Shown one piece after another: positions 12,833 through 55,610 of a stretch of 64,000 nucleotides of DNA; position 1 is the stretch's first letter, and every line of letters begins with the position of its first letter. The position numbers were made by a program, and so were the translations under genes. The DNA is from Octopus vulgaris. Its lineage: Eukaryota. The DNA lies in NCBI GenBank assembly GCA_951406725.2, contig OX597836.1:18352001-18416000 (forward strand), given 5' to 3'. Below the pieces are notes generated by a model. The model had not been told where the DNA came from. It saw only the letters and a program-made list of their open reading frames with translations, and made no database searches.

Positions 12833-12911
12833 ACATATATATATATATATATATATATGCATGTATGTGTGTAAGTACGTGTGTATGGACACAAGAAACA
12901 TACGGATATAT

Positions 12912-12953
<42 letters not shown>

Positions 12954-13128
12954 GTTTAAATATTTGTTGTGCAAGATTTTTTATGTGAAGTCGTGTGTTG
13001 AAACAGATATTGTTATATTTCGGAATGGTCATATTGCCAGTTTAGCCAATAAAAACACACGCACTATATATTTGGTGTTATTTTGCTTCAGTGATATTTA
13101 TTTTTTACATTAATCTTAATCTTATTTT

Positions 13129-13173
13129 GGCCAAAGTTCTTTCGTCACACTCCTGTGACCGCATCAGTGGTCC
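13129..13173 (-). ncRNA. Mirror copy of variant hammerhead motif in left PLE arm
   Basis: Exact reverse complement of 16340-16384. Confidence 0.6.
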
Positions 13174-13690
13174 TTTGTTTTCTTCTCACTTACTTGTGTC
13201 TCTCCTTACTAACCGTCAGCCATTTTGTATTTCTATTGTATGTCTTCATTTGCGCATGCTTATATCTCTATGTGCGTCTATGTTTATTTAGTGTGTGGGG
13301 GGGATGTCTGTAATATTTGTATCTTCTGGTTATATACATTCTTGTAATTTGTATTTTGTTTTTGTTGTTGTTGCTTTTGTTCTAATTTTGTTCATGTGTT
13401 TACATCCACCCATTATTATCATTACATATGCTTGTATGTATGTATAACAACAATATTAGTAATAATAATAATAAATCTAATCGAGAAAAAAAAAAAAAAA
13501 AAAAAAAGAATATACATATACACATATATATATATACATACATATACATATACATATATATATATACATATATACACACACATATACACATATACATATA
13601 CATATATATACACATATACATACATATAGATATTCATTTCTATTTCTTTAATTACCTGTGTATTTATTATGTTTGCAGGATCCACTATTG

Positions 13691-14788
13691 TCATATGTTG
13701 TGGTGTGCGCTATTGCTCCATTCTAGTTTTCTATTCAGGCTAGGTTTATTTTCTATTATATGTGTAGCTTCTGTAATTTGTCTAATTGTTGCATCTGTTC
13801 TATGTGTGGACAATATCTTAATCTCTATGTTATTGATTGATCCCCGTGTTCTTGTTCGGCGTGTTGGTACAGAATCGATGAGCTTTTACCTTCCTTGAGT
13901 TGTCTCCAATGTTCATTCACCCGCTCACCAATGCTTCTTGCAGTTTCCCCTACGTATGTTACTGTCTTGTTACTGCATCTTCCCTCTATACATCTTATAC
14001 TATAGACCACATTTCTGGCTTTACAGTTCGTTTGTGGGCTAAATCTACATACAGTGCAATAGTTATCCGTACAGAGAGTTCTACTAAAAGGATAGGTTCT
14101 ACCAATTATAGATCTGATAGGGTTGCCTGGCTTTTCAACAACCTTAATTCTTAGTTTAAGTTTATCTAGGGTCCTTCTAAAGCGGTACGCTAGTTCACCT
14201 CCAGGGGTGGTGTCAACGAACATGACACTCTGGTATTTATGGCTATCATACCAAGAGTTGGCCTTCCTTATTTTCTTTTTTGTCCTTTCTATAGTGTTCC
14301 ATGACTTGTTCCTATAGAGTGGGCAAATCCCATTCCTATCATTACATAATATATTATCAAATTTCTTCATGGCTCCTTTGTATACTCTGATCCTTTCTTT
14401 ATGGCTGTAACCTGAGAACTGCATGCGGTGAATGAAATACTGTATGTGTCTCTTTAATTCTGTAGGCTCGCACATGCGTGACACATTTCTCATTATTCTG
14501 ACGAGGTCTGCCATCAAAATATTGAATTTGGCATTGCCCGCAATGGCTGAGTTCCGGTGGATCAGGTATTTTGAGGCCATAGGTTTTGCATAGTATGAAT
14601 GAAGGATTTGGGTTTTATTTTTCACAATTTCTAGCCAGAGTTCAGTGTCTAGTACTGGTAGTCTATGGTTGGGGTGTTTAGTGGGGTAGTCTATTGTGAC
14701 CTTAATACTCTGGTGGATGGAGTTAGCTATTTGCTGGATGCTCTCCATAGTATTAGTTTCTATTACTATATCAACCGTACTCTCTTGT
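13691..14788 (-). pseudogene. Second, inverted copy of the same Penelope-like ORF fragment
   Basis: ORF 13825..14820(-) reads …SIKVTIDYPTKHPNHRLPVLDTELW…YVGETARS…. A 1-bp loss at C4 13842-13845 (G5 at 15669-15673 in the other arm) frameshifts the C-terminus. Confidence 0.9.
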
Positions 14789-14933
14789 GTATTAAGGTCA
14801 CAATAGAGTATTAAGGTCACAATAGACTACCCCACTAAACACCCCAACCATAGACTACCAGTACTAGACACTGAACTCTGGCTAGAAATTGTGAAAAAAA
14901 ACCCAAATCCTTCATTCATACTATGCAAAACCT

Positions 14934-15824
14934 ATGGCCTCAAAATACCTGATCCACTGGAACTCAGCCATTGCGGGCAATGCCAAATTCAATATTTTGA
15001 TGGCAGACCTCGTCAGAATAATGAGAAATGTGTCACGCATGTGCGAGCCTACAGAATTAAAGAGACACATACAGTATTTCATTCACCGCATGCAGTTCTC
15101 AGGTTACAGCCATAAAGAAAGGATCAGAGTATACAAAGGAGCCATGAAGAAATTTGATAATATATTATGTAATGATAGGAATGGGATTTGCCCACTCTAT
15201 AGGAACAAGTCATGGAACACTATAGAAAGGACAAAAAAGAAAATAAGGAAGGCCAACTCTTGGTATGATAGCCATAAATACCAGAGTGTCATGTTCGTTG
15301 ACACCACCCCTGGAGGTGAACTAGCGTACCGCTTTAGAAGGACCCTAGATAAACTTAAACTAAGAATTAAGGTTGTTGAAAAGCCAGGCAACCCTATCAG
15401 ATCTATAATTGGTAGAACCTATCCTTTTAGTAGAACTCTCTGTACGGATAACTATTGCACTGTATGTAGATTTAGCCCACAAACGAACTGTAAAGCCAGA
15501 AATGTGGTCTATAGTATAAGATGTATAGAGGGAAGATGCAGTAACAAGACAGTAACATACGTAGGGGAAACTGCAAGAAGCATTGGTGAGCGGGTGAATG
15601 AACATTGGAGACAACTCAAGGAAGGTAAAAGCTCATCGATTCTGTACCAACACGCCGAACAAGAACACGGGGGATCAATCAATAACATAGAGATTAAGAT
15701 ATTGTCCACACATAGAACAGATGCAACAATTAGACAAATTACAGAAGCTACACATATAATAGAAAATAAACCTAGCCTGAATAGAAAACTAGAATGGAGC
15801 AATAGCGCACACCACAACATATGA
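14934..15824 (+). CDS. Penelope-like element ORF fragment: RT thumb/linker, Cys-rich knuckle and GIY-YIG endonuclease (5'-truncated)
   Basis: Motifs KPMAS…SA…K…L…[29 protein letters not shown]-x4-C-x2-C…C, VVYSIRC…C…YVGETARS…RVNEH…H…H…RQITEA..I….P.LN.K.EW. Homology continues upstream (LPVLD) across a frameshift at the A8 run 14894-14901. Confidence 0.92.
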
Positions 15825-16339
15825 CAATAGTGGATCCTGCAAACATAATAAATACACAGGTAATTAAAGAAATAGAAATGAATATCTATATGTATGTATA
15901 TGTGTATATATATGTATATGTATATGTGTATATGTGTGTGTATATATGTATATATATATATGTATATGTATATGTATGTATATATATATATGTGTATATG
16001 TATATTCTTTTTTTTCTTTTTTTTTTTTTCGATTAGATTTATTATTATTATTACTAATATTGTTGTTATACATACATACAAGCATATGTAATGATAATAA
16101 TGGGTGGATGTAAACACATGAACAAAATTAGAACAAAAGCAACAACAACAAAAACAAAATACAAATTACAAGAATGTATATAACCAGAAGATACAAATAT
16201 TACAGACATCCCCCCCACACACTAAATAAACATAGACGCACATAGAGATATAAGCATGCGCAAATGAAGACATACAATAGAAATACAAAATGGCTGACGG
16301 TTAGTAAGGAGAGACACAAGTAAGTGAGAAGAAAACAAA

Positions 16340-16384
16340 GGACCACTGATGCGGTCACAGGAGTGTGACGAAAGAACTTTGGCC
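16340..16384 (+). ncRNA. Variant minimal type-I hammerhead motif in PLE 3' end
   Basis: cca-CUGAUG-CG-GUCACA(GGAG)UGUGAC-GAAAG-AA-CUU-ugg. Stem II is 6 bp, stem I is cca/ugg, A9 is non-canonical. Confidence 0.6.
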
Positions 16385-16528
16385 AAAATAAGATTAAGAT
16401 TAATGTAAAAAATAAATATCACTGAAGCAAAATAACACCAAATATATAGTGCGTGTGTTTTTATTGGCTAAACTGGCAATATGACCATTCCGAAATATAA
16501 CAATATATATATGTATATATATATATAT

Positions 16529-16700
<172 letters not shown>

Positions 16701-19899: not shown

Positions 19900-19936
19900 A
19901 TATGACGTTTCGGAATATTATTCCTTCTTCAGATAT
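19900..19936 (-). ncRNA. Minimal type-I hammerhead ribozyme motif
   Basis: auau-CUGAAGA-A-GGAAU(AAU)AUUCC-GAAAC-GUC-auau. Canonical core, palindromic loop-less stem III (ACGU), GUC triplet. Confidence 0.8.
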
Positions 19937-20880: not shown

Positions 20881-21075
20881 ACCGTTGGCGATCTTTTTCC
20901 TCCGTGTACTTTTTCAATTGGACTTTCCTCTGTCTCCTGTTTCCGAAGAAGAGCTTTGCTCGAAACATAAAACGACCTCTCTTTCCTTCCCTGACCGTCT
21001 GCTAAAACTTTATATGTACCACGTCCTCGAGTTGTTTTTTTGTTTGTTTGTTCTTCGTTTTCTCGGATTTACTAT
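20881..21075 (+). mobile_element. Short PLE-type terminus family D with variant hammerhead (20939-20973)
   Basis: guuu-CCGAAGA-A-GAGC(UUU)GCUC-GAAAC-AUA-aaac. Homologous to 29720-29930. Ends in (TA)n. Confidence 0.65.
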
Positions 21076-36990: not shown

Positions 36991-37068
36991 GCTACTGATG
37001 AGTACTTTTTGACAGCTCAGATTCTCAAAATGAATCCATTGGTTTTCGGTACGAAACGATCGTACAGC
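36991..37068 (+). ncRNA. Type-I hammerhead motif with long stem-II loop
   Basis: gcua-CUGAUGA-GUAC…GUAC-GAAAC-GAUC-GUA-cagc with palindromic stem III ACGAUCGU. The inverted partial copy at ~36208-36232 has 'uagc', which restores stem I. Confidence 0.75.
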
Positions 37069-47619: not shown

Positions 47620-47860
47620 ACGCCATGATAGATCGTTAGCTCCTACACGCATTTTTTCTCTCCTTTTTTTCCTCTCCTTTTTCTCTCTCCTTTTTTCTCT
47701 CTTTGTTTCTCTCCTTGTTTTTTTTTTCTGTGTATCTTTCTGTCGAAGAGCGTAGGCTCGAAACGTAAAAGACGTTTTCTATTCCTGAGCGCTATACTAA
47801 TACATTTGTTTGTTTGTACTCCACCTGCCTTCGTCTTTTGTTTATTTTCGTAAACTTTCC

Positions 47861-54143: not shown

Positions 54144-54175
<32 letters not shown>

Positions 54176-54180
<5 letters not shown>

Positions 54181-54814
54181 CTAATATAGGATAAAATTTT
54201 TCTCGAAAATCAATATCTTATCAATGGCCAGCATATCAAGAAATACCTTAAAAGGTTAAATTTATCAATAATTTACAAAATAAGAGCAAAAGAAAAATTC
54301 TAATGCCAAATATGCCGAGAAAAAGACAAACATTGTCAATAACCATTATAATTTATGCGTCTCGAAACAAACCGATAGAAATTTTTTTTTAATCCGTTAT
54401 TACCGTATTGGTCCCAATTTCGGGGTGAATTCATAAGAATTTTCCCCTCTTCAGCGATAAATACGTGAGATATAAGTGAAATACTTACTCATACCCATGG
54501 AAAAAGGCAAGTACTAAGTCCTGAGCAGACCTAAGTACCCCAAATATATCCAAAATAGAAAATCTTCGGCACGTCTCGAGACACGTGTGATTCGAACTAG
54601 AAACTTTCACAGAGTGAGAGAATCCGGAAGTGAACACTATAACTAATGTAGGATAAAAAATTTTCGGGACAAAAATGTTATCAATGGCCAGCATATCAAG
54701 AAATAGCTTTAAAGGTTAAATTTATCAATAATTTACAAAATAAGGGCAAAAGGAAAATTCTAATGCCAAATATGCCGTAAAAAAGACAAAAATTGTCAAT
54801 TAACCATTATGATT

Positions 54815-54817
<3 letters not shown>
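54176..54817 (-). mobile_element. Non-coding partial-tandem element (462-bp period, ~1.4 copies) with hammerhead; retrozyme-like or non-autonomous PLE
   Basis: 54176-54355 is repeated directly at 54638-54817, flanked by (TA)n on both sides, with an HHR in the unique part. Confidence 0.75.
54401..54459 (-). ncRNA. Canonical type-I hammerhead ribozyme motif
   Basis: uaucg-CUGAAGA-GGGG(aaaauucuuaugaauuca)CCCC-GAA-AUUGG(GA)CCAAU-A-cggua. All three stems pair and the triplet is AUA. Confidence 0.85.
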
Positions 54818-54884
<67 letters not shown>

Positions 54885-54910
54885 CATACATACATACATA
54901 CATACATACA

Positions 54911-54944
<34 letters not shown>

Positions 54945-55610
54945 CATACATACATATAATGTTTGTGTTACTAATTTAGGCATTGAAACAACCTGAAATA
55001 TATACCATAAACGAGTTAAATACATAAACAACGAAAGAAAAAATAGAAACCAGGACAAGTAAACACAGAGAAATGACCCTTCATCAGTTGTAAATAATTA
55101 AAATATAAATATTATAAATGAAACCGTCCTGTGAGAATGGTACCCATTGAAAGGTTTTCACGTTTAGCATACTAATTTTATAAAATCTGAAGTCCTAGCT
55201 ATAGCGTACTAAGCAAAGTGTATATGAAAGCACAAAAAAATCTATATAATAATATGCTTGTTCGTCCATCCGTTATACTTTAGTTAGTTAGAGAGGTGGA
55301 GTAAAAGTTAGAGAGAGAGAGGGAGGGATGAATATGTGTAGCGGATAAAGAAGTGAGGAAGAATTAGAGAAAGGTGTATAAGGTCAAATGCGTCACGTGG
55401 TTGGTTGACGGGAAAGGCGAGGAGCGAGAGAAAAAGACGGTGAGAGAAAAGAAGCAGAGAGAAGTTTTAATTACGTGTTGTAGGGTGTGGATGGAAAGGT
55501 AAAAAAGAAAGAGAGATGTTTAGGATACAATATTCAGCAGAATGTGATGTTCTGGTGGTGAAGTTAAACAAACGCAGATAGAGAGAGAGATGGACAACGG
55601 AGGCAGTTAC

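Follow-up and report, generated by a model that had tools for sequence, protein, structure and literature searches.

We found that positions 54176 to 54817 of the 64,000-nt stretch of Octopus vulgaris DNA analysed here (the window) probably hold a decayed insertion, 1.4 units long, of a multi-copy, non-coding octopus repeat that carries a hammerhead motif; a Penelope-like element (PLE) likely inserted it into a TA microsatellite. The repeat, the motif, many diverged relatives, a recurring junction between units and a right end specific to this locus are directly supported by the data.

Segment A (54176–54356) and segment A′ (54638–54817) are 89.1% identical over 183 columns (blastn E-value 5e-63), with 14 mismatches in 178 aligned columns and a period of 462 at the left end and 460–461 further right. 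This agrees with an earlier sequence-only reading, which had described a ~180-bp segment repeated at a 462-bp period and lying between TA tracts. We located these tracts at 54148–54179 and 54829–54884. The element's left end blends into (TA)n, and a target duplication is unreadable there; position 54176 would be the priming end of the insertion. Segments A and B together form a unit of 462 nt with 33% GC. The locus is arranged as follows.

54148..54179, no strand: left (TA)n tract, probable target of the insertion, read from the sequence
54176..54356, minus strand: segment A, the 3′ part of the unit in the hammerhead sense, 24% GC, oriented by the strand of the hammerhead
54357..54637, minus strand: segment B, the 5′ part of the unit, 40% GC, in single copy here, containing the hammerhead and covered in sequencing runs X1, X5, X9 and X17
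54637..54638, no strand: head-to-tail junction of units, which recurs at other loci, mostly 9 letters longer
54638..54817, minus strand: segment A′, a 5′-truncated second unit resembling a pseudo-LTR, from blastn and run contigs
54815..54957, no strand: right tract, interrupted (TA)n from about 54815, then (TACA)n to about 54957

The absence of a credible reading frame, also claimed earlier, was upheld. The longest ATG frame in the element encodes 69 aa, spans the junction and has no Pfam match (E ≤ 10); a 32-aa frame likewise has no Pfam match. We rejected the 69-aa frame as a gene on the missing Pfam match and on the 9 extra letters of other copies, which by reading introduce a stop. No open reading frame for a reverse transcriptase and GIY-YIG nuclease was found in the element, so it does not qualify as an autonomous PLE. 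No tRNA gene was found near it. A B-box-like nonamer on the minus strand (54597–54589), which we take to match the polymerase III B-box consensus, sits 40 nt in from the unit's 5′ end. Accompanied by neither an A-box nor a tRNA fold and followed by T4 runs, it was rejected as a Pol III promoter and is probably a chance match.

The minus strand of segment B contains the sole strict type I hammerhead match in the 64-kb window, with the following parts.

54400..54460, minus strand: type I hammerhead motif, from a strict three-stem pattern match
54460–54455 with 54405–54400, minus strand: stem I, 6 bp with one G-U
54454–54448, minus strand: core CUGAAGA, with C3 at 54454
54447–54444 with 54425–54422, minus strand: stem II, GGGG/CCCC, with an inner hairpin at 54441–54428
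54421–54418, minus strand: GAAA
54418–54407, minus strand: stem III, near-palindromic
54405..54406, minus strand: predicted self-cleavage site after AUA (A17 at 54406), by motif position

The type, the core, stem II and the AUA triplet are as the sequence-only reading gave them, and its predicted cut between 54406 and 54405 coincides with the motif's placement of A17 at 54406. Its two other stems required correction: stem I has 6 bp rather than 5, and stem III is limited in a single molecule to 4 bp and a 4-nt loop, since a fifth pair would need a 2-nt loop. Stem I is extendable by 3 bp beyond a 2x2 loop. The DNA retains the predicted cut site intact, at a distance of 230 nt from the insertion's left end. 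When 300 dinucleotide-resampled 64-kb windows were searched as a control, they yielded one looser match and none equally good. The Rfam hammerhead models gave no match, either at the gathering score across the window or at E ≤ 10 on stretches of 6 kb and 181 nt; the Rfam output at those settings consisted of microsatellite-driven or chance matches. To call the hammerhead fully canonical was an overstatement, considering its long stem III, long loop 2, AUA triplet, lack of an Rfam match and a cut site that is predicted to be paired in the monomer.

A looser two-box hammerhead pattern occurred at 14 metagenome loci, none of which forms all three stems or matches the element by blastn, and these were rejected as chance. 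A 22-letter motif from segment A had no match in metagenome and viral contigs.

We predicted how the unit folds, in calculations that contain neither tertiary contacts nor proteins. In the monomer, the fold of lowest energy occludes the cut site by pairing; the active fold is less stable by 2.7 kcal/mol and takes an ensemble share of 0.7% or less. The same block of the cut site is predicted in the circular unit. Two molecules are predicted to form a double hammerhead through the palindromic stem III (−48.9 kcal/mol). The unit folds better than its shuffles, with z-scores of −3.8 (linear) and −3.65 (circular), compared to −2.6 for the plus strand. The predictions thus describe a monomer that is mostly blocked and a dimer that forms a double hammerhead.

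Part of the element's words was found in 20 of the 24 public runs listed (ten studies, four organism labels), with a maximum of 42% in any run; none of the runs containing it is recorded as RNA. Four runs under two organism labels, of which X1 and X5 are DNA-like and X9 and X17 are guessed to be RNA, were compared with a rotated unit (54352–54812) that places the junction 54637/54638 internally. At 80% likeness, 3369, 2748, 223 and 57 contigs matched in X1, X5, X9 and X17, respectively, most of them less than 99% alike to the window unit. They covered 29 of 29 unit bins in X1, X5 and X9, and 28 of 29 in X17. As rough bounds, there are about 100 to 3500 copies; the summed depth is not itself a copy number. 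The contigs are short, and none covers a full unit (the longest DNA piece among those listed has 175 nt); among these short contigs we saw no locus carrying two hammerheads. Results on variants, loose ends and pieces refer to the 40 of 85, 24 of 418 and 32 of about 6490 that are listed, and a minority coding-PLE continuation or core variants could lie among the others.

The head-to-tail junction is crossed with at least 31 letters on each side by 3 of the 31 records listed (X1 r7, X1 r8 and X9 r28), and with 18–21 letters by two further records from X5. Four of these five bridging records are 7–11 letters longer there than the window, while X1 r8 differs in being 13 nt shorter. An identical 9-letter addition after 54637 was present in 1, 3, 1 and 0 contigs of X1, X5, X9 and X17, respectively. 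The 462-bp unit proposed earlier is accordingly correct for the window locus and not for the family, for which most bridging contigs give a unit of about 471 nt.

Beyond 54800/54810, contigs enter the hammerhead region (21 in X1, 5 in X5 and 2 in X9; 24 of 418 loose ends listed). Because they read past this point, 54817 is the stop of the window copy and not the end of the family. Every adjacency around the unit was found elsewhere, and therefore the family closes on itself. The share of matches continuing into unlike sequence was 0 in X1, 0 in X5, 0.01 in X9 and 0.41 in X17, the 41% of X17 being as expected of copies embedded in other transcripts or DNA. The sequence-only reading had named one pattern that would tell against it, copies that are always the fixed 3′ end of a long coding PLE; we found no common long continuation in these short contigs, and an unlike share of zero in both DNA runs. 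The family is a defined, multi-copy, circularly closed unit, with no obvious sign of being the end of a longer coding element. The proposed multi-copy non-coding family is thus borne out by thousands of diverged contigs, the recurring head-to-tail junction and the type I hammerhead.

Runs X9 and X17 were rejected as evidence for expression or circles. Their depth profiles follow those of the DNA runs (rank correlations of 0.78–0.90 for X9 and 0.42 for X17), and the contigs show neither ends, strand nor circles. Since the junction is also present in DNA, its presence in X9 is not evidence of RNA circles. We also rejected the depth trough at 54640–54671 as a terminus, since the 9-letter gap and several letters set the window copy apart from the family in that stretch.

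Among the 40 of 85 family variants listed, three lie inside the 61-nt motif and none in its core. At 54458, an A-U pair becomes G-U in 19–75% of the depth, and at 54424 a G-C pair becomes G-U or A-U in 19–61% of the depth; pairing is kept in both cases. Among the 24 of 418 loose ends listed, those before 54428 (X5 and X9) and before 54468 (X9) carry altered hammerhead letters. They lie on separate contigs, and we infer their linkage; if they belong together, they represent a subfamily in which N7 is altered and both partners of two stem II pairs are replaced. At the decay level of the window copy, an intact core is expected in 57% of cases, and its intact core is therefore no sign of selection.

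Two further observations concern segment B. At 54506–54513, many contigs of both DNA runs diverge consistently among the loose ends listed, pointing to at least two subfamilies in this segment. A low-depth 292-nt contig of X17 (record 11) contains the hammerhead region (54395–54499) twice in opposite orientation, an arrangement that an inverted PLE-type insertion would give.

We examined whether the two copies at the locus share an origin. Both have G at 54240/54700 and C at 54266/54726, where 99.1–100% of the family depth has A. The chance of two such shared letters under independent decay is 0.01–0.11 in this test of two sites, a result in favour of a single template or a source array of uniform sequence; later gene conversion could also have produced them. 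The divergence is about 4% per copy, corresponding to a rough age of 11–12 million years at the rate used in PMC13282606. Because it has one hammerhead and about 4% decay per copy, the window copy is most likely a dead offspring. With one hammerhead, the window locus is unable to release a circle or excise a unit.

We searched for an autonomous partner. Eleven PLE proteins compared with the element by tblastn gave no match better than an E-value of 0.39, and five motifs were absent from the portion of the PLE supplement available to us (PMC8557442). The window contains a 5′-truncated coding PLE, with the C-terminus of the reverse transcriptase and a GIY-YIG domain, as an inverted pair (12906–14711 on the minus strand and 14805–16608 on the plus strand, 97.8% identical over 1810 nt). 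Its protein shares 97% identity with an O. vulgaris record, which bears out, at least to the genus, the cephalopod origin suggested by the sequence-only reading. The same hammerhead-like motif, near 16340–16390 and with a non-canonical core position 9, is present in both arms. We rejected this PLE (12906–16608) as the partner, as it has no DNA likeness to the element and a different hammerhead-like motif.

Other hammerhead-like motifs occur in the window. Minimal PLE-type hammerheads with a bulged A before stem II lie at 19932 (minus), 20943 (plus), 29847 (minus), 47740 (plus) and 53720 (minus); the core at 19932 is intact, and the other four have one or two changes. The motifs at 20943/29847 and at 47740/53720 belong to two repeat families, whose members are 74% identical along 220 and 149 nt, respectively; neither family is related to 54176–54817. 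Further cores, CUGAUGA / CUGAAGA, lie at 36995 (plus) and 56705 (minus); each is followed by GAAA and has a stem II of 5 or 3 pairs that encloses a 51-nt insert, and they failed the strict three-stem test.

The proposed mechanism would begin with transcription, on the hammerhead strand, of a source locus that contains at least two units. Paired through the palindromic stem III, two hammerheads would then cut, while a lone motif would be mostly blocked. An autonomous PLE would supply the reverse transcriptase and the GIY-YIG nuclease. The PLE protein would nick (TA)n DNA, and copying would start inside the RNA, at the position of 54176, rather than at the ribozyme cut. Reverse transcription would then pass the intact cut site and the junction, and end after 1.4 units.

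Copying across the cut site would require either a ligated circle or an uncleaved multimer as template, and we regard the two as about equally probable. A ligated circle has been proposed as the template (PMC4209133, PMC7229834). In the one PLE studied in vitro, Poseidon PAc, reverse transcription starts internally and uncleaved RNA is the dominant substrate (PMC11167929). The sequence-only reading had taken the 1.4-unit structure as the mark of reverse transcription around a circle, a view that we do not share: it is not diagnostic, because 5′-truncated partial tandems that form pseudo-LTRs are an ordinary PLE footprint (PMC8557442) and PAc used uncleaved RNA, so that an uncleaved multimer is equally able to leave it. 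Any RNA circle is putative, and the 1.4-unit layout does not imply one.

We hold only tentatively, and consider rather unlikely, the more ambitious proposal of an active octopus retrozyme family of ~470 nt, mobilised by a TA-targeting PLE of the Hydra or Neptune type, with a circular RNA and a hammerhead that is off in the monomer and on in the dimer. Were the family still active, an alternative helix over the cut site would silence the monomer's hammerhead and dimerization would switch it on.

Debris of a long coding PLE could produce a similar locus, with two adjoining 5′-truncated terminal copies forming a pseudo-LTR and no independent short family behind them. Other hammerhead-bearing PLE remains are present in the window, PLEs fill 6.8% of the O. 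vulgaris assembly (PMC13282606), and a truncated copy before a longer one, a hammerhead near the 3′ end and TA flanks are together the standard PLE insertion. In addition, several contigs stop at 54637–54640, and two X17 contigs continue from 54640 into other sequence. However, random truncation would not repeat one junction across loci in two organism labels, and neither DNA run shows any share continuing into unlike sequence. The element has no coding trace, and its motif has neither the bulged base nor the missing stem III of minimal PLE hammerheads (PMC4209133). We therefore judge such debris to be an improbable source of the locus.

It is very improbable, in our assessment, that the repeat is satellite-like and spreads as DNA, the locus having arisen by duplication or deletion in a local array and its hammerhead being inherited with no role. 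Simple duplication of segment A would not give A-B-A′ with a family-type junction, even if the shared rare letters are compatible with local duplication. The copy is dispersed, with TA tracts at both borders, and its stem variants retain pairing. Support for a satellite comes from Xenopus, where 8 of the 9 predicted retrozymes assayed failed to cleave and cleavage was detected in one; the same preprint (Li, Clavereau and Pollet 2026, bioRxiv 10.64898/2026.07.22.740005) lists unequal crossover among the ways in which arrays grow. That the hammerhead is a chance fold within an ordinary repeat can be given hardly any credence: the absence of an Rfam match and an active fold that is not the monomer's minimum-energy fold would fit such an origin, whereas an equal motif in 0 of 300 resampled windows, three complete stems at 0 of 14 two-box metagenome loci and variants that preserve pairing speak against it. 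The data instead favour the preferred explanation, a decayed insertion of a non-coding hammerhead repeat.

If this explanation is right, a cephalopod family, missed by Rfam models, is added to the continuum of animal retrozymes and non-autonomous PLEs. This kind of retrozyme is already known from corals, mussels, amphibians and many other animals, and a specialist would not be surprised by it. The many TA-targeted partial tandems with a defined junction permit a computational test of circular against linear-multimer templates, and the predicted fold, off in the monomer and on in the dimer, is easily assayed. Should the family prove active, the letters shared in the overlaps of hundreds to thousands of insertions would record whether the PLE reverse transcriptase copies circles.

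The suggestion that the family is undescribed held in the literature searched, where we found no cephalopod retrozyme family; one may sit in the O. vulgaris library, Repbase or Dfam under a neutral name. In the giant squid genome, 235 hammerhead loci were counted, with no further analysis in the sections available (PMC6962438). The available parts of the text and supplement on O. vulgaris repeat annotation make no mention of ribozymes (PMC13282606), and PMC5680766 contains no cephalopod term.

Compared to metazoan non-LTR retrozymes, the element is similar in its short non-coding head-to-tail unit, type I hammerhead with an intact core, GC of 33% (below the 45–50% limit), many copies, self-paired fold and co-occurrence with PLEs. 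Monomer and partial offspring, such as the window copy, are common in retrozyme families. Its unit of 462–471 nt exceeds the 150–450 bp reported for animal non-LTR retrozymes (Cervera and de la Pena 2020, PMC7229834) and falls inside the 51–972 bp reported more recently (bioRxiv 10.64898/2026.07.22.740005); no cephalopod is treated in the sections of either paper that we consulted. It also differs in a stem III of 4–5 bp, compared to 1–2 bp in theirs, and in its AUA triplet and TA-tract target. To count as active, a retrozyme should have two or more units in a row that all contain a complete hammerhead (bioRxiv 10.64898/2026.07.22.740005); the window locus has one hammerhead and falls outside this definition. 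Nor does the element match plant LTR retrozymes, which have type III hammerheads in paired LTRs and a 4-bp target duplication; its one hammerhead is of type I, and it ends in TA tracts.

The element also has two features of non-autonomous PLEs, a partial tandem with a 5′-truncated copy and, at this one locus, insertion into (TA)n, which is typical of the Hydra, Naiad and Neptune clades (PMC8557442). Hydra-clade PLEs, including Hydra-1_Obim of O. bimaculoides (Craig et al. 2021, PMC8557442), share the (TA)n target and have a type I hammerhead close to the 3′ end, whose core reads CUGAAGA in several families. Their stem III, of 3–4 bp and near-palindromic with a 1–3 nt loop, resembles that of the element, although it opens with A-U, C-G and the element's with A-U, U-A. 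Unlike these PLEs, the element has no reading frame; its hammerhead lies 230 nt from the end, compared to about 30 nt in Hydra-1_Obim, and by eye the two 3′ ends, so far as that of Hydra-1_Obim was available, have no sequence likeness. Poseidon PAc of Anolis (Frangieh et al. 2024, PMC11167929) is similar in that its insertions end within the RNA, at a point downstream of the hammerhead rather than at its cut, and in its AT-rich target and partial tandems. It differs in being autonomous, with a hammerhead that overlaps the start of the reading frame and required protein for cleavage. Non-autonomous Chlamys PLEs such as MRC1 (PMC8557442) are likewise non-coding and form pseudo-LTRs and head-to-tail insertions, yet they belong to a green alga, generally have no canonical hammerhead, and have partners known through shared 3′ ends.

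Retrozymes have been argued to be non-autonomous derivatives of PLEs (bioRxiv 10.64898/2026.07.22.740005), and the two categories form one continuum, within which assigning this family to the animal non-LTR retrozymes, as the sequence-only reading did, is reasonable.
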